Shown here piece by piece: positions 2,263 to 22,750 of a stretch of 32,000 nucleotides of DNA. Made by a program: the position numbers and the translations under genes. Position 1 is the stretch's first letter. Every line of letters begins with the position of its first letter. The notes beneath the pieces are model-generated. The model made no database searches. It was not told where the DNA came from and was given only the letters and a program-made list of their open reading frames with translations. Source of the stretch: Alkalilimnicola ehrlichii MLHE-1 (GTDB taxonomy: Bacteria > Pseudomonadota > Gammaproteobacteria > Nitrococcales > Halorhodospiraceae); NCBI RefSeq assembly GCF_000014785.1, contig NC_008340.1, positions 2,550,001 to 2,582,000 on the forward strand. Reading direction: 5' to 3'.

Positions 2263-2370
2263 AATAAGAACGCTCTCAAAACTGCCGTTGAATGATAAAT
2301 AGAGGCGTACTTTAACCCAAGCCCGGCCCTCGGTGCATGCCGGACTGCCGCGCCCGGGTATAGGCCGCCA

Positions 2371-3171
2371 TCAGGTGTGGTGCCGGCGCAGCAGTTCCCA
2401 GGCCTCGCGTAACTCCCGGGTGCGGTTGGCGGCATGGCGCACCTCCGTCTCGCTGCCGCCGCGCGCCTGCACCCGGTCCGGATGGTGCCGGCTGAGGGCC
2501 CGGCGATAGGCCCGCCGCACTGCGGCCTGATCGGCATCGGCGCCGACCCCGAGCAGGGCCCGGGCGCGGGCGACACCGTCGGGGGCCCCCGCGGCCCCGG
2601 CCCGGCCGGGCCGGTGGCGACCGCCGGCCAGGCGCTGATCCAGATCCCGCCGCGACAGCCCCAACCCCCGCCAGACGCGGACCAGCAGCCGGTACTGGGC
2701 CCCCTCCGGCGGCCCGTCCGCCGAGGCCACCCGGACCAACGCCGCGAGCACCCGGGCCCGCCACTCCGGCCGCGCCCGCAGCCCCCGGCGTAGGGCGCGC
2801 AACATCGGCCGCAGCGGCAGACCGGCGTCCCGGCCGCGGCGGAAGACGGTGATCGCCCGACGCCGGCGCAGGCCGGTGAAGCGCAACTCCGCCAGCACCG
2901 CCTCGGTCACCGCCACCTCGGCCTCGCTCACCCGACCGTCGACCTTCGCCAGCCGCCCCATCAATGCCAACAGCACACCGGCGCAGCGACGCTCCGGCCC
3001 GTCCAGGTCGCAGCCGGACCAGACCCAGCCGAAATAGCGGTGATGGCGCACCACCCCATCGGCCACCCAGCCCAACACGAACCCGGCCACGGCGCCCACA
3101 GCGCCGGCCAGCAGCCCGCCCAGCAGCAGCCCGGTGATCCGGGCCAGGTAGCCCTGCCAGTAACGCTTCAC
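2371..3171 (-). CDS. djlA: DnaJ-like co-chaperone DjlA: N-terminal TM helix, TerB-like domain, C-terminal J domain
   Basis: The track ORF 2371..3252 is TTG-extended. I place the start at GTG 3171 (GAGG 5 nt upstream) because VKRYWQGYLARITGLLLGG resembles the E. coli DjlA N-terminus as I remember it. The middle segment LMGRLAKVDGRVSEAEV is TerB-like. The C-terminal J domain carries HPD (AYRRALSRHHPDRV). Confidence 0.75.
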   Translation of the reverse strand: MKRYWQGYLARITGLLLGGLLAGAVGAVAGFVLGWVADGVVRHHRYFGWVWSGCDLDGPERRCAGVLLALMGRLAKVDGRVSEAEVAVTEAVLAELRFTGLRRRRAITVFRRGRDAGLPLRPMLRALRRGLRARPEWRARVLAALVRVASADGPPEGAQYRLLVRVWRGLGLSRRDLDQRLAGGRHRPGRAGAAGAPDGVARARALLGVGADADQAAVRRAYRRALSRHHPDRVQARGGSETEVRHAANRTRELREAWELLRRHHT

Positions 3172-3241
3172 CCTCGCCTCAATGCGCTGCCACAAAGCGG
3201 CTAAGGATAAACCACCCGGCCGCCGGCGGGCACCCGGCTTG

Positions 3242-3285
3242 CAATTGCACAAGTGATGTACAATAGTTATACAATCTTTTCACAG
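3242..3285 (+). promoter_or_regulatory. candidate sigma70 promoter overlapped by four 11-bp direct repeats (CarH/LitR-type operator candidate)
   Basis: This is the only AT-rich patch in the djlA/oxidoreductase divergent region. The promoter candidate is TTGCAC (3245-3250), 17 nt, TATACA (3268-3273). ACA occurs at 3249, 3260, 3271 and 3282, exactly 11 bp apart. The 11-mers are caattgcACAa, gtgatgtACAa, tagttatACAa and tcttttcACAg. GGAGGG lies 8 nt before the ATG at 3300. Confidence 0.45.
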
Positions 3286-3299
3286 CGGAGGGCGGCAAC

Positions 3300-4655
3300 A
3301 TGGCTGAGGGGCATATCGCCGTGGTCGGCGGCGGTGTTTCGGGACTGACTGCAGCCTGGCTCCTCAGCCGGCGCTATCGGGTCACGCTGTTCGAGCGCAA
3401 CGGCTACGTCGGCGGGCACACCCATACCGTGGAGGCCATGCTCCCCGAGGGCGCCGTCCCGGTGGATACCGGCTTTATTGTCTACAACGAGCCGAATTAC
3501 CCGGGGCTCACGGCACTCTTTCGCCACCTGGGGGTCCCCACCCGGCCCAGCGACATGTCCTTCGCGCTGTCGGTACTGGACGAGGACATCGAATGGTCGG
3601 GCGACAACCTGGGCACCCTGTTCGCCCGGCGCCGCCACCTGCTCAGCCCCCGCTTCCTGCGCATGGTCGTGGATATCCTGCGCTTCAACCGCCACGCCCG
3701 CGGCTACCTGCGCCGCGGCGTCCCGGAGCGGCTGACCCTCGGCGACTACCTGCGCGAGCGCGGCCTGGGGCGCGGTTTCACCGACCACTACCTGCTGCCC
3801 ATGGCGGCCGCCATCTGGTCCTGCCCCCAGGCCAGCCTGCACGAGTTCCCGCTGGCGCGCTTTCTGCGCTTTTTTGACCAGCACGGACTGATCCGACTCG
3901 GCAACCGACCGCAATGGCGCACCGTCCAGGGCGGCGGCCGCGAGTATGTCCAACGCATGCTGCCCGCCCTCCACGCCTACCATATCAACACCCCCGTGCG
4001 GCGGGTGCAGCGGACAACCGACGGCGTCACGCTCTTCGGTGATGGCGGGTGTCTCGGCCACTTCGACCAGGTGGTCCTGGGCGGGCACGCCGACGAGAGC
4101 CTGGCCATGCTGGCCCAGCCCAGTGACGACGAGGCCGCACTGCTCGGCCGTTTCCGTTACCAGAGCAACGAGGCCGTGCTGCACACCGATCCAGCCCTGA
4201 TGCCCCGCCGCCGCGCGATCTGGGCCAGCTGGAACCACCTGACGCGGCGGGACGAGGCGGGCCGGCAACCGGTCTCGGTCACCTATTGGATGAACCGCCT
4301 GCAAGGGCTCACCACCCATCGTGATCTGTTCGTCACCCTCAACCCCGCCATCCCGGTCCGGGAGGAGCAGGTGCTGCGGCGGATGCATTACAGTCACCCG
4401 GTGTTCGACCGTGATACCCACCGCGCACAACAGGGGCTGCCCCGTCTCCAGGGCCGGCGGCACACTTGGTTCTGCGGCAGCTATTTCGGCTATGGTTTCC
4501 ATGAGGACGGAGTGCAGTCCGCCGTCCGGGTGGCCTGGGGGCTGGGCGTCGCCGCGCCCTGGGCGACGACCACGACCGCCGACACCGCAACCGATATCGG
4601 CCCCGAGGGCACGCCCGACTGGGCCGTCGCCTGCGCGGGGGAGGAGCGGCGATGA
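3300..4655 (+). CDS. NAD(P)/FAD-dependent oxidoreductase (amine-oxidase / desaturase-like flavoprotein)
   Basis: 451 aa. The N-terminal dinucleotide-binding fingerprint is IAVVGGGVSGLTAAWLL...VTLFE. This family is commonly paired with Cfa-like methyltransferases. Its stop overlaps the next start (ATGA at 4652-4655). Confidence 0.8.
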   Translation: MAEGHIAVVGGGVSGLTAAWLLSRRYRVTLFERNGYVGGHTHTVEAMLPEGAVPVDTGFIVYNEPNYPGLTALFRHLGVPTRPSDMSFALSVLDEDIEWSGDNLGTLFARRRHLLSPRFLRMVVDILRFNRHARGYLRRGVPERLTLGDYLRERGLGRGFTDHYLLPMAAAIWSCPQASLHEFPLARFLRFFDQHGLIRLGNRPQWRTVQGGGREYVQRMLPALHAYHINTPVRRVQRTTDGVTLFGDGGCLGHFDQVVLGGHADESLAMLAQPSDDEAALLGRFRYQSNEAVLHTDPALMPRRRAIWASWNHLTRRDEAGRQPVSVTYWMNRLQGLTTHRDLFVTLNPAIPVREEQVLRRMHYSHPVFDRDTHRAQQGLPRLQGRRHTWFCGSYFGYGFHEDGVQSAVRVAWGLGVAAPWATTTTADTATDIGPEGTPDWAVACAGEERR

Positions 4656-5905
4656 CGGAACTTGGCCGCGGCGCCCGGCTGAGCGCACCGCTGCCCCGCA
4701 GCGTGCGGCCCATGGGCCGCTGGCTGCGGCGGCTGGCGGCGGGCACCCTGCACCTGCGCCTGCCCGGGGGCGAATCCATCACCGTCACCGCGCCGGCGCC
4801 CGGCCCGGAGGCCACCTGGGTGCTGCACCGGCCGCTGCGACTCATCCGCTGCCTGCTGCACCGCGGCGACCTGGGCCTGGCGGAGAGCTACATAGCCGGT
4901 GACTGGGACAGCCCGCAGACCGCCCGCCTGCTGGAGCTGCTCAACGCCAACCACAGCGCCTACAACTACCGGCTGCGTGGCCGCTGGCTAACCCGCCTGA
5001 CCCTGTGGCTGTTTCATCGCGCCCGGGCCAACACCCGGCGCGGCGCGCGGCGTAACATCATGGCCCACTACGACTTGGGCAATGCCTTTTACCGGCTCTG
5101 GCTGGACCCCGGCATGACCTACTCCGGCGCCTGGTACGCGGCCCCGGCCATGGACCTGGCACAGGCCCAGGACGCCAAATACACCGCCATCCTGCAGACG
5201 CTGGCGGCCCGGCCGGGGGAGCACGTGCTGGAGATCGGCTGCGGCTGGGGCGGGTTCGCGGAGGCGGCCGCCCGGGCCGGCCTGCGCGTCACCGGCGTCA
5301 CCCTCTCACCCAACCAACTGGCGTGGGCCCGGGAGCGCATCCGAAAGGCCGGGCTGGAGGACCGCGTGGTGCTGCGTCTGCAGGACTACCGGGCCCTGAG
5401 CGGGCAGTACGACCACGTGGTCTCGATCGAGATGTTCGAGGCCGTGGGCGAGGCCCACTGGCAGACCTGGTTCGAAACGGTGCACCGCTGCCTACGGCCG
5501 GGGGGGCGGGCGCTGGCGCAGATCATCACCATCCGCGAGGACGCCTTCGAGAGCTACCGCGCCCACCCGGATTTCATCCAGCGCTACATCTTCCCCGGCG
5601 GCATGCTGCCCAGCCGCAGCCACCTGCGAAGCCACGCCCGGGCGGCGGGGCTGGAAGTGGCCACCATGGCCGCGAGTGGCACCCACTACGCGCGCACCCT
5701 GGCCGACTGGGACGCCCGCTTCCAGGCGGCGACACCCGCCCTGGAGGCATTGGGCTTCGACCTCCGTTTCCGCCGTATGTGGCACTATTATCTGGCATAC
5801 TGCGAGGCAGGCTTCCGGTCCGGGCACATTGACCTGCAGCGACTGGTCATGCAGGTCTCTCCCTCCCCACCGCAACCGCGTTTGATCGCCGAGACACCAT
5901 GCTGA
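4652..5905 (+). CDS. cyclopropane-fatty-acyl-phospholipid synthase family SAM-dependent methyltransferase
   Basis: 417 aa. It has the SAM-binding motif VLEIGCGWGG, an N-terminal GDLGLAESYIAGDWD segment, and the C-terminal WHYYLAYCEAGF typical of the Cfa / mycolic-acid methyltransferase family. GGAGGAG precedes the ATG. Confidence 0.85.
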   Translation: MTELGRGARLSAPLPRSVRPMGRWLRRLAAGTLHLRLPGGESITVTAPAPGPEATWVLHRPLRLIRCLLHRGDLGLAESYIAGDWDSPQTARLLELLNANHSAYNYRLRGRWLTRLTLWLFHRARANTRRGARRNIMAHYDLGNAFYRLWLDPGMTYSGAWYAAPAMDLAQAQDAKYTAILQTLAARPGEHVLEIGCGWGGFAEAAARAGLRVTGVTLSPNQLAWARERIRKAGLEDRVVLRLQDYRALSGQYDHVVSIEMFEAVGEAHWQTWFETVHRCLRPGGRALAQIITIREDAFESYRAHPDFIQRYIFPGGMLPSRSHLRSHARAAGLEVATMAASGTHYARTLADWDARFQAATPALEALGFDLRFRRMWHYYLAYCEAGFRSGHIDLQRLVMQVSPSPPQPRLIAETPC

Positions 5906-6807
5906 CGGTAGACGGTCTATACCCCATCCGCACCGCCACGGCCCTCACCGGGGTCAACCCCGTGACCCTGCGCGCCTGGGAGCGCCGGTACGGGCTGATC
6001 CGGCCCCAGCGCACCCCCAAGGGCCACCGGCTCTACACCGAGGCGGACATTGCCCGCATCAAACGCATCCTGGAACTGCTGGAGCAAGGCATCCCCATCA
6101 GCCGCACCCGCGAGGTGCTGGACCGTGAGGCCGGGCTGAACGCCCCGGCAGGGGCGACAGCCGCCCCCTCCGGCGAGACCCCCTGGACGCAGTACCGGGA
6201 TCAACTCCGCCAGGGCATCACCGCACTCGACGCCCTGAGCCTGGACCGCGCCTACAACGAGGCCCTGTCCCTCTACCCGTTGGAGCTGGTGGGCCGGGAG
6301 TTGCTGCTGCCCCTGCTGGACGACTATCGGGCGGGGGCGGCCGCCGGGGGTGAGCGCCAGCTTCAGGCCCACTTTCTCGAGGCCTACCTGCGCCACCGGC
6401 TCGGCGCCCGCTTCCACCACCAGCTCGCGCGGGCCCGCGGCCCGCGGGTGCTCAGTGCCTGCCTCCCCGGCGAGATTTGCGAGATCCCCACACTGTTCTT
6501 TGCCCTGTGCGCGGTCGAACACGGCTACCGGGTGGTCTACACCGGCCGGCCGCTACCGCTGGAGGTGGTCACCGGGGCGGCCCGGCGCGAGGACCTGGCC
6601 GCGACCCTCCTGTACGGCGACTGTCGCGCCGACCGGGGCAGCCTGCAGGCGGTGCTGAGCCGACTGCCCGACACCCCCGCCCACCGCCTCTTCCTCTCCG
6701 GCCCCGGTGCCGCGGAGGCGGCGGTAGCCCCGATCCAGGCCCTGCCCGCGGACATCAGCCGGGCGCTCCAGACCCTGGACCGGGCTCTGCTCACCCCCAC
6801 CGACTGA
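5899..6807 (+). CDS. MerR-family transcriptional regulator with a CarH/LitR-like C-terminal B12-binding-like domain (degenerate motif)
   Basis: 302 aa. The N-terminal MerR HTH is YPIRTATALTGVNPVTLRAWERRYGLIRPQRTPKGHRLYTEADIARI. The C-terminal segment RVLSACLPGEICEIPTLFFALCAVEHGYRVVYTGRPLPLE follows the beta-loop-helix pattern of the cobalamin-binding D/ExHxxG module, but with C in place of H and P in place of G. The start overlaps the Cfa-like stop by 7 nt. Confidence 0.7.
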   Translation: MLTVDGLYPIRTATALTGVNPVTLRAWERRYGLIRPQRTPKGHRLYTEADIARIKRILELLEQGIPISRTREVLDREAGLNAPAGATAAPSGETPWTQYRDQLRQGITALDALSLDRAYNEALSLYPLELVGRELLLPLLDDYRAGAAAGGERQLQAHFLEAYLRHRLGARFHHQLARARGPRVLSACLPGEICEIPTLFFALCAVEHGYRVVYTGRPLPLEVVTGAARREDLAATLLYGDCRADRGSLQAVLSRLPDTPAHRLFLSGPGAAEAAVAPIQALPADISRALQTLDRALLTPTD

Positions 6808-6824
6808 GCGGGGCAACAACACCC

Positions 6825-8264
6825 ATGGGCGATGCCACCCTGGTCTGGCTGCGACGCGACCTGCGCCTGACCGACAACCCGGCCCTCGACCAGGCCGCCC
6901 GGCGGGGCGGGCCGGTGATCGCGGTCTATCTCCACGCGCCGGAGGAGACCCCGCAGTACCCGCCCGGAGCCGCCAGCCACTGGTACCTGCACCACAGCCT
7001 CAAGGCCCTGGGCCCGGCCCTGGCCCAGGCGGGCATCCCACTGGTGCTGCGCCGCGGCCCGGCCCTGGCGACCCTGCGGGCGCTGATCCGCGCCACGGGC
7101 GCCGGCGCAGTCTACTGGAACCGGCTTTACGAGCCCGATGCCGTGGCCCGCGATCGGACGGTGAAACAGGCGCTGCGCACGGAGGGCCTCGACTGCCGCA
7201 GCTTCCCGACCGCCCTGCTGCACGAACCCTGGGCCGTGCGTAATCAGGCCGACCGGCCCTACCGGGCCTTCACCCCCTTCTGGCGCGCCTGCCGCCGCCA
7301 GCCGCCGCCGGCGGCACCCCTGCCCGCCCCCGACCTGCGCGACCGTCCGGTGCCGGCGGTGGAGGGCCTCGACCTGGCGGCGCTGGGGCTGCTGCCCCGC
7401 ACCCCCTGGGACACCGGGCTGCGCAACACCTGGCAGGCCGGCGAGTCGGCCGCGCTGGCCCGGCTGGAGGCCTTCGCCGCCGACCGGCTGGCGCGCTATG
7501 CCCAGGACCGGGACCGACCCGCCGAGCCCGGCACCTCCGGCCTGTCACCGGCGCTGCACTTCGGCGAGCTCTCGCCGCGCCAGGTCTGGTGGCAGGTAAT
7601 GGCGGCACGCGAGGCCGGGGTGCCCGAGGATGCCTGCGAGACCTTCCTCTCCGAGCTGGGCTGGCGCGAGTTCGCCCACCACCTGCTCTGGTCCCACCCG
7701 GATCTGGGGGACGCCCCGGTGGATGACCGCTTCGGCGCTTTCCCTTGGCGCCCCGACCCCGGCGATGGATGGCTGCACGCCTGGCAGGCCGGCCGCACCG
7801 GCATTCCGCTGGTGGACGCCGGCATGCACGAACTCTGGCAAACGGGCTGGATGCACAACCGGGTGCGCATGGTGACCGGCTCGTTCCTGGTCAAGCACCT
7901 GCGACTGCCCTGGCAGCGGGGCGAGCGCTGGTTCCGGGACACCCTGGTGGACTGGGATGCGGCCAGCAACGCCATGGGCTGGCAGTGGGTGGCCGGCTGC
8001 GGGGCCGACGCCGCGCCCTACTTCCGGATCTTCAACCCGGTGCGCCAGGGTGAGCGCTTCGACCCCCAGGGGCGCTACGTGCGCCGCTGGCTGCCGGCCC
8101 TGGCCAACCTCCCCGACAAATACATTCACGCCCCCTGGACGGCGCCCGAGGCGGTGCTGCGCCGGGCCGGGGTCACCCTGGGGTCCGACTACCCGTGCCC
8201 GCTGATCGACCTGCGGCTGGGCCGGGAACAGGCCCTGTCCGCCTTCCAGGCCATCAAGGGCTGA
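6825..8264 (+). CDS. phrB: deoxyribodipyrimidine photo-lyase (class I CPD photolyase / cryptochrome family)
   Basis: I use the internal ATG at 6825 of track ORF 6477..8264. The N-terminus [24 protein letters not shown] is photolyase-like. FAD-domain motifs are [25 protein letters not shown] and [20 protein letters not shown]. The upstream 116 codons of the ORF overlap the regulator gene and are P/G/R-rich. Confidence 0.9.
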
Positions 8265-8282
8265 GCCGCGGACGGTGCGGCG

Positions 8283-8320
8283 GATGGGCGCCGGACGCGG
8301 CACCGGGCGCCCATCTGTTG
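8283..8320 (+). terminator. stem-loop downstream of phrB (possible operon terminator; weak T tract)
   Basis: GATGGGCGCC (8283-8292) pairs perfectly with GGCGCCCATC (8306-8315) across a 13-nt loop, followed by tgttgt. There is no strong U run, so intrinsic termination is uncertain. Confidence 0.35.
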
Positions 8321-8362
8321 TACCATCCGGCCCAAACCACCGGAATGCGGGAGCACCCCCTC

Positions 8363-9256
8363 ATGGCCGAAACGCCAGAGGCCCTCTACGAGGCCAATCT
8401 CAAGTCCCTGGAGTGTCTGCACCAGGGCAAGGTACGGGACATCTACGCGGTGGACGACCGGCGCATGCTGATCGTCACCACCGACCGCCTGTCCGCCTTT
8501 GACGTCATCCTGCCCGACCCCATCCCGGGCAAGGGCCAGGTGCTGACGTCGGTCTCCAACTTCTGGTTCGAGCACACCCGTCACATCATCGCCAACCACC
8601 TGCTCGACGACCGCCCGGAAGAGGTCATCCCCGATCCGGCCGAACAGGCGCGGGTGGCCGGCCGCGCGGTGGTGGTCCGGCGGGTCCGGCCGCTGCCTGT
8701 GGAGGCCATCGCCCGCGGCTACATCATCGGCTCCGGCTGGAAGGACTATCAGGCCACCGGTCAGGTCTGCGGCATCCCGCTGCCGCCGGGGCTACGCCAG
8801 GCCGACGCGCTGCCCGAGCCGATCTTCACCCCCTCCACCAAGGCCGCGGTGGGCGGGCACGACGAAAACGTACGCTTCGACGCGGTGGTGAAGGCCATCG
8901 GTGCGCCGCTGGCCGAGCGCATCCGCGAGGTGACCCTGCGGCTCTACAGCGAGGCGGCGGCTTACGCCCGCGAGCGCGGCATCATCATCGCCGATACCAA
9001 GTTCGAGTTCGGGGTGGATGAGGACGACAACCTGCTGCTGATCGACGAGGCCCTGACGCCGGACTCTTCCCGCTTCTGGCCGGCGGACCAGTACCGCCCG
9101 GGCAGCTCACCGCCCAGCTTCGACAAGCAGTTCGTGCGCGATTACCTGGAAACTTTGGACTGGGACAAGACCCCACCGGGGCCGCGTCTGCCGGAGGAGA
9201 TTCTGCGCCGCACCGCCGAGAAATACCGCGAAGCCCAGCGCCGGCTGCTGGGCTGA
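8363..9256 (+). CDS. purC: phosphoribosylaminoimidazole-succinocarboxamide (SAICAR) synthase, long form
   Basis: I use the internal ATG at 8363 of track ORF 8195..9256 (alternative ATG at 8345). The sequence is [48 protein letters not shown]...[10 protein letters not shown]...[19 protein letters not shown] lies 9 nt upstream. Confidence 0.9.
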
Positions 9257-9281
9257 AGCCCCCCAACCCTCAGGAGGTTCC

Positions 9282-9458
9282 GTGGGACAGAAAGCCTTCG
9301 CCATCCTGCTGCCCGGCTTGCTCATCCTCTTCGGCCTGGGGCTGCTCTACAGCGCCTGGGCCGACCCCAACGCCGGGGTCATCTACGGCATCCCCGCCGG
9401 CCTGCTGTTCGCCGGCTTCGGCGTCTACCTCATGATCCAGCTCTGGCGCTCGGGCTAG
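9282..9458 (+). CDS. small two-helix membrane protein (58 aa), hypothetical
   Basis: This ORF is below the track length cut-off. The start is GTG at 9282, preceded by AGGAGG (9272-9277). My translation is MGQKAFAILLPGLLILFGLGLLYSAWADPNAGVIYGIPAGLLFAGFGVYLMIQLWRSG, with stop TAG at 9456-9458. It has two hydrophobic helices and GC-rich third positions like the neighbouring genes. Confidence 0.5.
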   Translation: MGQKAFAILLPGLLILFGLGLLYSAWADPNAGVIYGIPAGLLFAGFGVYLMIQLWRSG

Positions 9459-9475
9459 ACACCCCCAGGCCGACT

Positions 9476-9730
9476 CCCCGCCATCACAAGGCACCGGAGC
9501 CCCAAGCCCGTCATCGCGACGAGCGCCCCCTCCCCCGTCATCGCGAGGGCCGAAGGCTTTCCCCCCGTCATCGCGAGGGCCGAAGGCCCGTGGCGATCCA
9601 GGGCGGTAGACTGCCACGTCGGCTTCGCCTCCTCGCAGTGACAGTGGGGGCGGGTCCCCGCTCGCAGTGACAGTGGGGGTGGGTCCCCGCTCGCAGTGAC
9701 GGTGGGGGTGGCGCTTTCCGCCGTGACGGT
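9476..9730. repeat. REP/REPIN-like palindromic element cluster A: one full element flanked by extra half-sites on both sides
   Basis: The full element is gtcatcgcgagggccgaaggcccgtggcgatccagggcggtagactgccacgtcggcttcgcctcctcgcagtgac (about 9567-9642). Extra left heads sit near 9479, 9509 and 9536. Extra right heads end at 9671, 9700 and 9727. Confidence 0.85.
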
Positions 9731-11647: not shown

Positions 11648-11711
11648 AGTATCCCTCGTTCAACCCGAATGATTGCCCGCCGACCACCGCCGCAGGCCCC
11701 TTGGCGCCCCC

Positions 11712-11822
11712 TCCCCCCGTCATCGCGAGGGCCGAAGGCCCGTGGCGATCCAGAGGGGTAGACTGCCACGTCGGCTTCGCCTCCTCGCAGTGACGGGGCG
11801 GGCCCTCGCTCGCCGTAACCGT
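11712..11822. repeat. REP/REPIN-like element cluster B: one full 76-bp element plus a degenerate half-site
   Basis: Positions 11719-11794 read gtcatcgcgagggccgaaggcccgtggcgatccagaggggtagactgccacgtcggcttcgcctcctcgcagtgac. The degenerate ccctcgctcgccgtaacc follows. It lies between the tkt stop and the gap start. Confidence 0.85.
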
Positions 11823-11839
11823 TGGAGACTGGGCTGCGC

Positions 11840-15192: not shown

Positions 15193-15213
15193 CGGGCAGA
15201 GCACCCGGCGCCG

Positions 15214-15290
15214 CCCCGAGGAGCGCTGCAACAGGGCCGCCGGCCCTGCCAGGCTCGGGGATGGCGCCCCATCGTTCCAACGGCGCTCAG
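15214..15290 (+). promoter_or_regulatory. SAH (S-adenosylhomocysteine) riboswitch in the ahcY leader
   Basis: CCCCGAGGAGCGCUGCAACAGGGCCGCCGGCCCUGCCAGGCUCGGGG...CCAACGGCGCUCAG. P1 pairs 15214-15220 with 15254-15260. The P2 hairpin pairs 15232-15238 with 15242-15248. The pseudoknot pairs GAGCGC 15221-15226 with GCGCUC 15283-15288. The GAGGAGCGCUGC / AGGCUCGG / AACGGCGCUC blocks match the SAH riboswitch consensus as I recall it, and the element sits in the usual position upstream of ahcY. Confidence 0.75.
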
Positions 15291-15309
15291 CGAAATCGGA
15301 GTCTGCACC

Positions 15310-16722
15310 ATGAATGCTGTCGTGGATACCAACGCCAACGACTACATCGTGCGCGACATCGGCCTCGCTGACTGGGGCCGTAAGGAAATCGCCATCGCCG
15401 AGACAGAGATGCCCGGCCTGATGGCGGTGCGCGAGGAATACCGCAACGAGCAGCCGCTCAAGGGCGCCCGCATCGCCGGGAGCCTGCACATGACCATCCA
15501 GACCGCCGTGCTCATTGAGGCGCTGATCGAGCTGGGGGCCGAGGTGCGCTGGGCGTCCTGCAACATCTACTCCACCCAGGATCACGCCGCCGCGGCCATC
15601 GCCGCCCAGGGCATCCCGGTGTTCGCCTACAAGGGCGAGACCCTGGATGAGTACTGGGACTACTGCCACCGGATCTTCGAGTTCGAGGGCGAGCCGGCCA
15701 ACATGATCCTCGACGACGGCGGCGATGCCACCCTGCTGCTCAACCTGGGCGCCAAAGCCGAGCAGGACGCCTCTGTGCTGGACAACCCGGGCAGCGACGA
15801 GGAAAAGGCCCTGTTCGTCGCCATCCGCAACCGCCTGGAGAGCCAGCCTGGTTGGTACAGCGAGCGGCTGGCCGCCATCCAGGGGGTCACCGAGGAGACC
15901 ACCACCGGCGTCAACCGCCTGGTGCGCATGGCCAACGAGGGCACCCTGCCCTTCCCCGCCATCAACGTGAACGACTCGGTCACCAAGTCCAAGTTCGACA
16001 ACCTCTACGGCTGCCGCGAATCGCTGCTGGACGGCATCAAGCGGGCCACCGACGTGATGATCGCCGGCAAGATCTGCGTGGTGGCGGGCTACGGCGACGT
16101 GGGCAAGGGCTGCGCCCAGAGCCTCCGCGGCCAGGGCGCCACCGTCTGGATCACCGAGATCGACCCCATCTGTGCCCTGCAGGCGGCCATGGAGGGCTAC
16201 CGGGTGGTCACCATGGACGAGGCCGCTGACAAGGCGGACATCTTCGTCACCGCCACCGGCAACTACCACGTGATCACCGGCGAACACCTGAGGGCGATGA
16301 AGCACAACGCCATCGTCTGCAACATCGGCCACTTCGACAACGAGATTGACGTGGCCAGCCTGCGCGACTGCGAGTGGGACAACATCAAGCCGCAGGTGGA
16401 CCACATCACCCTGCCCAGCGGCAACAAGATCATCCTGCTGGCCGAGGGCCGGCTGGTGAACCTGGGCTGCGCCACCGGGCACCCGAGCTTCGTGATGTCC
16501 AACTCCTTCACCAACCAGGTGTTGGCCCAAATCGAGCTGTTCGCCCACGGGGAGAAGTACGACAAGCAGGTCTACGTGCTGCCCAAGCACCTGGACGAGA
16601 AGGTCGCGCAGCTCCACCTGCAGAAGATCGGCGCACAACTGACAGCGCTGACCCCGGAACAGGCGGAATACATCGGCGTGCCGGTGGAGGGGCCTTACAA
16701 GCCGGAACACTACCGGTACTGA
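15310..16722 (+). CDS. ahcY: adenosylhomocysteinase
   Basis: 470 aa: [34 protein letters not shown]...[38 protein letters not shown]...HFDNEID. The match to AhcY runs the full length. Confidence 0.95.
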
Positions 16723-16731
16723 CGGGGGACC

Positions 16732-17525
16732 GTCACTGCGAGGAGGCGAAGCCGACGTGGCAGTCTACCGCCCTGGATCGCCACGGGCCTGCGGCCCTCG
16801 CGATGACGGGGGTGGCGCCCCACCGTCACTGCGAGGAGGCGAAGCCGACGCGGCAGTCTACCGCCCTGGATCGCCACGGGCCTGCGGCCCTCGCGATGAC
16901 GGGGGTGGCGCCCCCACCGTCACTGCGAGGAGGCGAAGCCGACGCGGCAGTCCACCGCCCTGGATCGCCACGGGCCTGCGGCCCTCGCGATGACGGGGGT
17001 GGCGCCCCACCGTCACTGCGAGGAGGCGAAGCCGACGCGGCAGTCTACCGCCCTGGATCGCCACGGGCCTGCGGCCCTCGCGATGACGGGGGTGGCGCCC
17101 CCACCGTCACTGCGAGGAGGCGAAGCCGACGCGGCAGTCCACCGCCCTGGATCGCCACGGGCCTGCGGCCCTCGCGATGACGGGGGTGGCGCCCCACCGT
17201 CACTGCGAGGAGGCGAAGCCGACGCGGCAGTCCACCGCCCTGGATCGCCACGGGCCTGCGGCCCTCGCGATGACGGGGGTGGCGCCCCACCGTCACTGCG
17301 AGGAGGCGAAGCCGACGCGGCAGTCTACCGCCCTGGATCGCCACGGGCCTGCGGCCCTCGCGATGACGGGGGTGGCGCCCCCACCGTCACTGCGAGGAGG
17401 CGAAGCCGACGCGGCAGTCTACCGCCCTGGATCGCCACGGGCCTGCGGCCCTCGCGATGACGGGAGGAAGCCTTCGCCTTCGGGATGACGAAGGAAAACA
17501 TTCGGCCCTCGGGATGACGGTGGCG
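16732..17525. repeat. tandem array of 8 near-identical 93/94-bp units (77-bp palindromic element plus 16/17-bp linker), followed by degenerate half-sites
   Basis: Unit starts (gtcactgcgagg) are at 16732, 16825, 16919, 17012, 17106, 17199, 17292 and 17386. The last unit ends about 17462. The degenerate tail (cttcgggatgacg, cctcgggatgacgg) runs to about 17525. The track ORFs across it change frame only after the three 94-bp units, exactly as expected from 93/94-bp units. Confidence 0.92.
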
Positions 17526-17553
17526 GCGCCCCCGTTTGAAAACAGCCCTCAGC

Positions 17554-18423
17554 ATGGAACAATCTCAGACGATGGAATCCCAGAAACAACACCCCCCGGT
17601 CTACAGCTGCGAGTTCTTCCCCCCGCGCACCGAGCAGGGGGTGGAGAAGCTACGTACCACCCGTGAGCGCCTCGCGCGCCTGAACCCGGCCTACTTCTCG
17701 GTGACCTTCGGCGCCGGCGGCTCCACCCGCGACCGCACCTACGAGACGGTCACCGAGATCCAGCGCAGCGGCCTGGAGGCCGCGCCGCACATCTCCTGCA
17801 TCGGCTCCACCCGGGAGAGCATCCGCGAGCTGCTGCACGGCTATCGGGAACAGGGCATCCGCCGCATCGTCGCCCTGCGCGGCGACATGCCCTCCGGCAC
17901 CCGCGACGTAGGCGAGTTCCGCTACGCCAACGAACTGGTGGCCTTCATCCGCGCGGAGACCGGCGACCACTTCCACATCGAGGTGGCCTGCTACCCGGAG
18001 TTCCACCCGCAGGCCCGCGACGCCGAGGCCGACATGGACAACTTCGCCCGCAAGGTCGAGGCCGGGGCCGACGCCGCCATCACCCAGTACTTCTTCAACG
18101 CCGACGCCTACTTTCACTTCGTCGGCCAAGCGGAGAAACGGGGCGTGACCCTCCCCATCGTCCCGGGCATCATGCCCATCATCAACTTCACCCAGCTGGC
18201 CCGCTTCTCCGACGCCTGCGGCGCCGAGATCCCGCGCTGGCTGCGCAAGCGGCTGGAGGCCTATGGCGACGACAAGGCCGCCATCCAGGCCCTGGGCCAT
18301 GAGGTGGTGCGGGATCTCTGCCAGCGGCTACTGGACGGCGGCGCCCCGGGGCTGCATTTTTACAGCATGAACCAGGCGCGCCCGGTGGAGCGCCTGTGGG
18401 CCGACCTGCAGCTCCCCCGCTGA
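17554..18423 (+). CDS. metF: 5,10-methylenetetrahydrofolate reductase
   Basis: The track ORF 17536..18423 starts at TTG. I use the first ATG at 17554 (alternative 17572), and no strong SD is visible. The sequence is YSCEFFPPRTEQGVEKL...FSVTFGAGGSTRDRTYE...EAAPHISCIG...IVALRGD...ITQYFFNAD...HFYSMNQA. Confidence 0.88.
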   Translation: MEQSQTMESQKQHPPVYSCEFFPPRTEQGVEKLRTTRERLARLNPAYFSVTFGAGGSTRDRTYETVTEIQRSGLEAAPHISCIGSTRESIRELLHGYREQGIRRIVALRGDMPSGTRDVGEFRYANELVAFIRAETGDHFHIEVACYPEFHPQARDAEADMDNFARKVEAGADAAITQYFFNADAYFHFVGQAEKRGVTLPIVPGIMPIINFTQLARFSDACGAEIPRWLRKRLEAYGDDKAAIQALGHEVVRDLCQRLLDGGAPGLHFYSMNQARPVERLWADLQLPR

Positions 18424-21104: not shown

Positions 21105-21512
21105 ACTCCCACTGCGAGCCCTCGCCCCCATCACCCGTCACTGCGGGCCCCCGAAGGGGACGCGGCAGTCCAGGCCGCGTGTGGATTGCCACGTCGCTTC
21201 GCTCCTCGCAATGACGGGGTGGTGACCCCCACCGTCATCGCGAGCCCCGACCTATCACCCGTCACTGCGAGCCCCAACCCATCACCCGTCACTGCGAGCC
21301 CCAACCCATCACCCGTCACTGCGAGGAGCGAAGCGACGTGGCAGTCTACCCCTCTGGATGGCCACGGGCCTTCGGCCCTCGCGATGACGGGGAGGAGGTG
21401 GACGGCCTCGCGGTAACGGGGGTACGCCGTTCTTCCTTGATTCGGGCCCGCGCAGCCGGGGGGGTGAGGCTCGCGATGACGGTGCGAAAAGCTTCCGGGC
21501 TCGTGAGGACGG
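21105..21512. repeat. REP/REPIN-like element cluster D: two full elements, a 27-bp-period head array, and degenerate half-sites
   Basis: A variant full element spans 21137-21215 (gtcactgcgggcccccgaaggggacgcggcagtcc...ctcgcaatgac). Heads sit at 21234, 21261, 21288 and 21315, a 27-bp period. A full element spans 21315-21388. Half-sites lie near 21408, 21469 and 21498. Confidence 0.85.
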
Positions 21513-22187: not shown

Positions 22188-22267
22188 CTCGCTCTCGGAC
22201 CGGGGGTGAACCGGCCATCTTAAGCACCCAGGGGAAGGGCTGCAAGCGGCGGGGAGGCACCACCTCC

Positions 22268-22735
22268 CGTCATGGCAAGGGCCGAAGGCTTTCCCCCCGT
22301 CATCGCGAGGGCCGAAGGCCCGTGGCGATCCCGAGGGGTAGACTGCCACGTCGGCTTCGCCTCCTCGCAGTGACGGTGGGGGCAACCTTCCGCTTCCGGC
22401 ACAGTCCAGTTCTTCAAGAGGAGCGCAGCGACGTGGTGATCCACACCCCGCCTGGACTGCCTGCCACGCCCCTGCGGGGGCTCGCAGTGACGGTGGAGGC
22501 GGCACCCACCCCCGTCATCGCCAGGAGCGAAGCGACACGGCGATCCACACCCCGCCATGGACTGCCACGCCCCTACGGGGCTCGCAGTGACGGTGGGGCG
22601 GCACCACTCCCCGTCATCGCGAGGAGCGCAGCGACGTGGCGATCCAGACGCCGCATGGACTGCCACGCCCCCTTCGGGGGCTCGCAGTGACGGGTGATGG
22701 GGGCGGGGGCTCGCGGTGACGGGTGATGGGCGGGG
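22268..22735. repeat. REP/REPIN-like element cluster E: one canonical element plus three elements of a second subtype, and half-sites
   Basis: The canonical element spans 22299-22374. Subtype-2 elements span 22418-22491 (left head missing), 22514-22591 and 22613-22691 (gtcatcgcgaggagcgcagcgacgtggcgatccagacgccgcatggactgccacgcccccttcgggggctcgcagtgac). A half-site ctcgcggtgac lies near 22713. Confidence 0.85.
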
Positions 22736-22750
22736 GCGCACGCCCGGTTT

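Follow-up and report, generated by a model that had tools for sequence, protein, structure and literature searches.

The 44-bp array of direct repeats at positions 3242-3285 is probably the operator of the LitR/CarH-family repressor (the 5899-6807 product) that is encoded in the operon downstream of it. Positions refer to the whole stretch of Alkalilimnicola ehrlichii MLHE-1 DNA that was analysed, which is 32 kb long and is referred to here as the window. The first-pass annotation had read the array as a CarH/LitR-type operator; this reading is supported by the fit of all four repeats to the operator consensus, by their overlap with the promoter, by their conservation, and by the repeat spacing found across the family.

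Positions 3242-3285 read CAATTGCACAA GTGATGTACAA TAGTTATACAA TCTTTTCACAG, which are four consecutive 11-mers arranged head-to-tail. ACA occurs at 3249-3251, 3260-3262, 3271-3273 and 3282-3284, with a period of exactly 11 bp. T is found at position 5 in all four 11-mers, and position 2 is A in the first and the third. The ACA positions, the 11-mers and the conserved T and A positions were described in the first-pass annotation and are all confirmed from the sequence. The true repeat unit is the hexamer TnnACA, which is present as TGCACA, TGTACA, TATACA and TTCACA at 3246, 3257, 3268 and 3279 (span 3246-3284).

All four repeats are on the plus strand. DR1 (caatTgcACAa, 3242-3252) carries the hexamer TGCACA (3246-3251) and includes the candidate -35 element TTGCAC (3245-3250). 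DR2 (gtgaTgtACAa, 3253-3263) and DR3 (tagtTatACAa, 3264-3274) are the core repeats; the DR2 hexamer TGTACA (3257-3262) matches the family-wide TRTACA, and the DR3 hexamer TATACA (3268-3273) overlaps the candidate -10 element (TATACA at 3268-3273 or TACAAT at 3270-3275). DR4 (tcttTtcACAg, 3275-3285; hexamer TTCACA at 3279-3284) fits nnnnTnnACAn and lies over the expected transcription start.

A CarH operator is built from 11-bp direct repeats in tandem, 5'-nnnnTnnACAn-3', which overlap the -35 or -10 element (PMC9304148). The consensus given in the first-pass annotation essentially matches this published form. An operator of this type has at least three such tandem repeats (PMC9304148); in the window, four of four repeats fit. 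Overlap with the predicted promoter is seen at both elements: DR1 overlaps TTGCAC and DR3 overlaps TATACA/TACAAT. Repeat number varies between known systems. Three are used by Thermus CarH; for the CarH of Bacillus megaterium the number is four, or three with a pseudo-repeat in addition (PMC9304148).

Four ACA motifs, or four TnnACA hexamers, at a period of 11 bp occur only once in the 32-kb window when both strands are considered. At periods from 6 to 24, no other phased set of four ACA or of at least three TnnACA is found on either strand of the window, and TGTACA itself has a single occurrence in the 32 kb (DR2). The window was shuffled 100 times with dinucleotides preserved, and the pattern of four TnnACA never appeared, even with up to two mismatches allowed. 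When the local AT-rich 64 bp were shuffled 20,000 times, four ACA, four TnnACA and three TnnACA were never produced, and the TRTACA-N5-TRTACA pair had a frequency of at most 1e-4. There are no further operator copies in the window; every relaxed match lies inside 3246-3284. An Rfam scan of the window gave no match at the array locus.

The GC content is 69% in the window and 32% in the 44-bp array core. The array had been described as the only AT-rich stretch of the region, which does not hold: a second low-GC stretch (2200-2349, approximately 51% GC) lies close by, where the HAD hydrolase and djlA genes have their 3' ends.

Other parts of the window contain repeats and regulatory elements of different kinds. 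A 93-bp tandem repeat (7.9 copies, 98% matches) is located at 16729-17464, between ahcY and metF. Related copies at 9532-9712, 11704-11827, 21134-21422 and 22247-22737 make this a dispersed, GC-rich intergenic family of approximately 90 bp. An SAH riboswitch (RF01057, 69.7 bits) at 15212-15295 (+) immediately precedes the gene for S-adenosylhomocysteine hydrolase (15310-16722), and metF (17536-18423) comes after that gene; this riboswitch arrangement is ordinary.

The array is located within a 128-bp gap that separates two divergent transcription units. The candidate sigma70-type promoter on the plus strand (3245-3275) can be read as TTGCAC-17-TATACA or as TGCACA-18-TACAAT (3246-3275). In a promoter scan of 2300-9500, TGCACA-18-TACAAT was the sole sigma70-like match (shuffle mean 0.3); no promoter-like site was found on the djlA strand in the same interval. 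The first-pass annotation had placed the promoter at TTGCAC (3245-3250), 17 nt and TATACA (3268-3273). This placement is correct, and the independent scan gives an equivalent site. If TTGCAC/TGCACA is the -35 and TATACA/TACAAT the -10 element, the -35 of this predicted promoter falls in DR1 and its -10 in DR3, with the expected start in DR4. A ribosome-binding site, GGAGG (3287-3291, +), is located 8 nt before the ATG at 3300.

The operon consists of four tightly packed genes on the plus strand (oxidoreductase-cfa-litR-phr), with purC next downstream. Gene 1 (3300-4655) encodes an FAD/NAD-binding amine-oxidase-like oxidoreductase (Pfam Amino_oxidase, 4.7e-19; NAD_binding_8). The start of gene 2 (4652-5905) overlaps the end of gene 1; it encodes a cyclopropane-fatty-acid-synthase-like, UfaM-like methyltransferase (Pfam CMAS, 1.6e-85), and its NCBIfam matches to CFA synthase models are under their cut-offs. 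Gene 3, litR (5899-6807), encodes a MerR-family regulator with a CarH fold and degenerate B12 motifs (MerR_1, 3.8e-17), and gene 4, phr (6825-8264), encodes a deoxyribodipyrimidine photolyase (Pfam DNA_photolyase, 7.6e-51; FAD_binding_7, 4.1e-87). It had been proposed that the operon immediately downstream of the array encodes a CarH/LitR-like regulator and a photolyase; both are present, but the oxidoreductase and CFA-synthase-like genes precede them.

On the other side of the gap is a divergent gene for a djlA-like co-chaperone (2371-3171, minus strand; Pfam TerB and DnaJ). Its NCBIfam DjlA score of 142.7 bits is under the cut-off of 162. The likely start is the GTG at 3171, 71 nt from DR1, as judged from the gene calls in A. 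ehrlichii CP184336.1 (L081) and a soda-lake contig (L082). A GC-rich hairpin followed by a T-run (3203-3232, minus strand) lies between the operator and the djlA start and was flagged as terminator-like by a scan. Its fold is no better than that of shuffles (z = 0.03) and it was rejected as a terminator; L082 has other hairpin-capable sequence at the equivalent position.

The array can be compared with that of a sister lineage, which is represented by soda-lake metagenome contigs (L082-L085 and L093). LitR in this lineage is 77-78% identical to that of the window (dS approximately 0.6), and the layout of djlA plus the four-gene operon is the same. The sister promoter reads TTGCAt-TTGCACA-gcgtg-TATACA-atagt-TGTACA-aacat-TTTCGC. 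DR1-DR3 are in register in all of these contigs, and DR1 is base-for-base identical in L082 and L093. In L082, the DR2 position has TATACA and the DR3 position has TGTACA; TGTACA and TATACA have been exchanged so that TRTACA is kept while the -10 consensus is not. DR4 has been lost in the sister lineage, which has TTTCGC instead, next to a 3-bp indel.

The regulator gene is thus found at the locus together with a site that is conserved in orthologous promoters, DR4 excepted. Conservation of the phased pattern in such promoters had been put forward as a test of the operator; repeats 1-3 pass this test, being in register, and the 11-bp spacing is found family-wide beside litR, whereas repeat 4 does not. 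DR4 is lineage-specific and is possibly a weak repeat or a pseudo-repeat. As it is not conserved, "four" may overstate the functional site. Conservation of DR1 could stem from its -35 role alone. In a closer lineage (P0002, LitR 85% identical), the contigs begin within the cfa gene, so the promoter is not included.

The window DNA is 99.2% identical to that of A. ehrlichii CP184336.1 (L081). When L081 5690-6000 is aligned with window 3255-5700, window 3255-5250 (1,996 bp) is found to be deleted in this strain. The deletion takes DR2-DR4, the -10 element, the ribosome-binding site, the entire oxidoreductase gene and the 5' part of cfa. The sequence corresponding to approximately 5366-5700 is also absent, leaving a 115-bp cfa remnant (95.7% identity). 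The litR-phr pair is intact and now stands behind DR1 and the -35 element only, DR1 being the sole repeat left. The L081 strain is a natural operator-deletion variant. Although DR2-DR4 and the first two genes have been lost, its litR-phr pair is unaffected; therefore, the switch is dispensable in at least one strain.

LitR (302 aa) aligns over residues 2-275 with Thermus CarH structures 3WHP and 5C8D (phmmer, E approximately 2e-17); its NCBIfam CarH score of 92.6 bits is under the cut-off of 400. The N-terminal MerR-type DNA-binding domain (Pfam MerR_1) has the RxWERRY recognition helix of CarH proteins as RAWERRY (in the sequence LRAWERRYG), a motif which is invariant in the LitR alignment. 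The AlphaFold (AF2) model has a pLDDT of 84.9. Its 49 best PDB matches in a Foldseek search are TtCarH structures only, including the DNA-bound 5C8E. The DNA-binding domain, four-helix bundle and Rossmann module of the CarH fold are all predicted in this model, which matches the TtCarH cobalamin-binding domain with a target-normalised TM of approximately 0.8 and an rmsd of approximately 3.2 A.

The motifs for B12 binding are absent from LitR. The region aligned to the Wx9EH motif of TtCarH is ...YRAGAAAGGERQLQAH, in which W is replaced by A and E by A, and H alone is kept. The classic B12-binding motif of the Rossmann module is D/ExHx2G/P-x41-SxT/V-x22-27-GG (PMC9304148). LitR has GEICEIP in the first part of this motif, with the axial His replaced by Cys (His177 to Cys); 41 residues later it has YGD in place of SxT/V, and further on LSGPG in place of GG (GG to SG). 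No match to Pfam B12-binding (PF02310) or B12-binding_2 (PF02607) was found in LitR at E<=0.001. Even with these motifs lost, the AF2 model still predicts a Rossmann-like fold. Since all B12-binding motifs are lost, LitR is therefore predicted to be B12-independent. For litR as a whole, dN/dS is 0.23; the DNA-binding domain alone has 0.06 and the remainder 0.29. This purifying selection argues for a working B12-independent LitR rather than a pseudogene.

The 14 nearest LitR homologues are also without B12 motifs. Promoters of the nearest B12-less relatives also have this hexamer, spaced at 10-13 bp, or else the 11-bp arrangement in degenerate form. In all five of L089, L091, L092, L173 and L175 (B12-less), litR adjoins the photolyase gene, and in several the gene coordinates imply a 4-bp overlap. 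In most of these Ectothiorhodospiraceae-type loci, synteny extends from litR-phr to purC, which lies downstream either immediately or after a few other genes. The overlap and adjacency of litR and phr hint at stoichiometric co-expression of regulator and photolyase.

The spacing of the hexamers was surveyed in 80 loci anchored on LitR homologues (L001-L080) from Gamma- and Betaproteobacteria. Pairs of TRTACA/TGTAYA hexamers in the same orientation are found 63 times at 11 bp in these loci, against once at 10 bp and three times at 12 bp; minor peaks are seen at 18-22 and 29-32 bp. Among the unique 11-bp pairs, 35 of 55 are located in the 300 bp that precede litR. This interval makes up 2.1% of the sequence, and the concentration is approximately 30-fold. 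Non-palindromic hexamers at 11 bp are direct in 15 cases and inverted in one. The pooled 11-mer profile, (A/T)(A/T)nT-TRTACA-(A), is largely fitted by DR2 (gtgaTGTACAa) and DR3 (tagtTATACAa). Of 80 loci anchored on homologues of gene 1, eight have an 11-bp TRTACA pair upstream.

Beside the 11-bp pairs, a third TnnACA in phase is found at offsets -11 and +22 only, and flanks six of the 63 pairs on either side. Six loci (L006, L008, L010, L015, L039 and L063) have arrays of three or four repeats. One of the six is that of Ectothiorhodospira haloalkaliphila, which has a B12-less LitR; its TACACA-N5-TATACA-N5-TGTACA ends 8 nt before the litR ATG.

Of the 80 LitR homologues, 43 have intact B12 motifs (Wx9EH and ExHxxG). 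Among these 43, the 300 bp upstream of litR contain an exact TRTACA-N5-TRTACA in 22 cases, against three of the 37 B12-less homologues; the pairing in the window is therefore a minority arrangement. Halomonas-type B12-less loci have TGTACA-N12-TGTACA instead. From these sequences, operator spacing appears to track the loss of B12 binding.

The array has features of several known systems. In Thermus thermophilus CarH (5C8E), as in the window, 11-bp nnnnTnnACAn direct repeats are arranged head-to-tail with one repeat over the -35 element (PMC9304148), and the window LitR is a full-length homologue with a predicted fold match and the RxWERRY helix. Thermus CarH is an AdoCbl-bound tetramer on three repeats, whereas the window has four repeats, three of them conserved, and its LitR has lost Wx9EH and the His motif. 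The targets also differ, being carotenoid genes in Thermus and photolyase and lipid-modification genes in the window. Bacillus megaterium CarH agrees with the window in repeat count and in placement over the -35/-10 elements (PMC9304148); unlike the window regulator, it is B12-dependent, comes from a Firmicute and has carotenoid targets.

The class II LitRs of Pseudomonas (PplR1-3 in P. putida and PmlR1/2 in P. mendocina) resemble the window LitR in being B12-independent and in their TGTACA/TRTACA hexamers, through which they repress a sigma70 promoter (PMC9758184). The window operon is homologous to their regulon. In P. putida and P. mendocina, phrB, ufaM (CFA-synthase-like), the FAD oxidoreductase gene and litR are repressed by LitR and induced by light, and a short LOV protein strips the B12-less LitR from DNA in blue light (PMC9758184). 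By its motifs, the window LitR resembles class II: the B12 motif is lost and the helical bundle is kept. Its identity to Pseudomonas LitR (L078/L079) is approximately 36-38%. No LOV/PAS gene is found among the annotated or scanned ORFs of the window.

The operator layout in the window is not that of class II. The footprinted class II operator is T(G/A)TACA-N12-TGTA(C/T)A, which is inverted and measures 18 bp centre to centre (PMC9758184, a P. mendocina study that cites the original work), whereas the hexamer spacing in the window is N5. A search of the window for the class II layout gave no match, even when two mismatches were allowed.

Some explanations of the array do not involve the operon's own LitR acting through 11-bp repeats, and these are very improbable. 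Sites for other regulators also share elements with the array: Pseudomonas class II LitR sites (TRTACA-N12-TGTAYA) likewise have TGTACA-type hexamers (PMC9758184), and GTGA (3253-3256) and TCAC (3280-3283) are both present. A class II site is contradicted by the absence of the N12 layout noted above. For the remaining candidates, spacing is again decisive. The consensus sequences are TGT-N12-ACA for PpsR/CrtJ, CTGT-N8-ACAG for LexA and TGTGA-N6-TCACA for CRP. In the array, the TGT at 3257 and the ACA at 3271 are separated by N11 and not N12; CTGT-N8-ACAG is absent; and GTGA and TCAC are 23 nt apart. It is equally hard to credit that the array is simply an AT-rich promoter or UP-like region in which the periodic ACA is fortuitous or serves DNA bending. 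The array, at the centre of a short intergenic region, is indeed AT-rich (32% GC over 44 bp) and its hexamers overlap promoter elements, but shuffles of the same local composition never recreate it. The same hexamer and spacing are found beside litR homologues in unrelated genomes of 42-68% GC, and the G/A swaps in L082 weaken the -10 match yet keep TRTACA.

Two further explanations accept LitR as the regulator and differ in how it acts or where it binds. One is a genuine AdoCbl-dependent CarH photoreceptor, which would bind the repeats in the dark as a B12-bound tetramer and disassemble in light. The operator has the canonical class I (B12) layout (PMC9304148), a layout found mainly with B12-motif-bearing LitRs in the 80 loci, and the whole fold of the cobalamin-binding domain is kept in the model. 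As every defining B12 motif is lost from the regulator, with no Pfam B12-binding or B12-binding_2 match at E<=0.001, and the 14 nearest homologues likewise have none, this explanation is improbable, and with it an AdoCbl-dependent form of the first-pass reading. A stronger contender, although still somewhat unlikely, is that the central pair DR2-DR3 (TGTACA-N5-TATACA) alone is the operator and is bound by a LitR dimer, DR1 being merely the -35 element and DR4 a chance match. A two-repeat core is plausible because pairs are the commonest arrangement family-wide, third repeats being few, and because DR4 is absent from the sister lineage; in addition, DR1 (TGCACA) and DR4 (TTCACA) deviate from the TRTACA core. 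Against this, DR1 is conserved and in phase, and four in-phase TnnACA are never produced by shuffles. In published CarH operators, one or two full repeats function together with pseudo-repeats, and footprints span all four (PMC9304148). Arrays of three or four repeats are also found at other LitR loci, including that of the B12-less LitR of E. haloalkaliphila.

If the array is the operator of the operon's own LitR, the winged-helix, MerR-type domains of a LitR oligomer would line up along one face of the DNA helix in head-to-tail order. Each domain would take one 11-bp repeat, where it would read T-n-n-A-C-A. The high-affinity core would be DR2 and DR3 (TGTACA and TATACA), and LitR would occupy DR1-DR3 and perhaps DR4. 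Because the repeats cover the -35 element, the -10 element and the start, occupancy is proposed to block RNA polymerase at the single promoter of the operon. The circuit would be negatively autoregulated, since litR lies within the operon.

De-repression of the operon would be expected in light, because the same gene set is light-induced via the Pseudomonas LitR homologues. As LitR is without the B12-contacting motifs, light is most likely sensed by a partner or by another chromophore, and not by LitR-bound AdoCbl.

A precedent for a B12-independent repressor of this fold is CarA of Myxococcus xanthus, a CarH paralogue. Like the window LitR, CarA is a CarH-fold repressor whose operator has 11-bp TnnACA repeats; it requires a separate light-dependent anti-repressor (PMC9304148). 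CarA differs from the window LitR in that its classic B12-binding motif is still present, as is the EH of Wx9EH, and in that it is found in Cystobacterineae only (PMC9304148). The window LitR has also lost the His motif, and is gammaproteobacterial. It is conceivable, though rather unlikely, that Alkalilimnicola and its B12-less Ectothiorhodospiraceae relatives have made their own CarH-to-CarA-like transition, in which the CarH fold and the canonical tandem-repeat operator are retained but the repressor oligomerises without B12 and is released in light by a partner. Candidates for such a partner are a LOV protein or the photolyase/cryptochrome-family protein encoded beside litR.

Operators of this type are already known, as are the regulator family and the regulon, and the array does not change knowledge of the mechanism class. 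A B12-less regulator on a class-I-style operator of four repeats is mildly unusual. A literature search for light regulation in Alkalilimnicola found nothing relevant, and the organism and its lineage are without a description of a LitR operator. The array would assign a concrete cis-element and a regulator to the photolyase and lipid-modification operon of a haloalkaliphilic chemolithotroph, and the survey extends the tandem-repeat operator rule of CarH/LitR to many uncultured Gamma- and Betaproteobacteria. The L081 strain (CP184336.1) is a ready natural control for operator loss. A LitR that is without B12 motifs but has a B12-type operator layout is a useful case for B12-independent oligomerisation and light sensing; if a CarA-like transition has indeed taken place in this lineage, it would be a third route, beside CarS and the short LOV protein, by which light is linked to a B12-less CarH scaffold.
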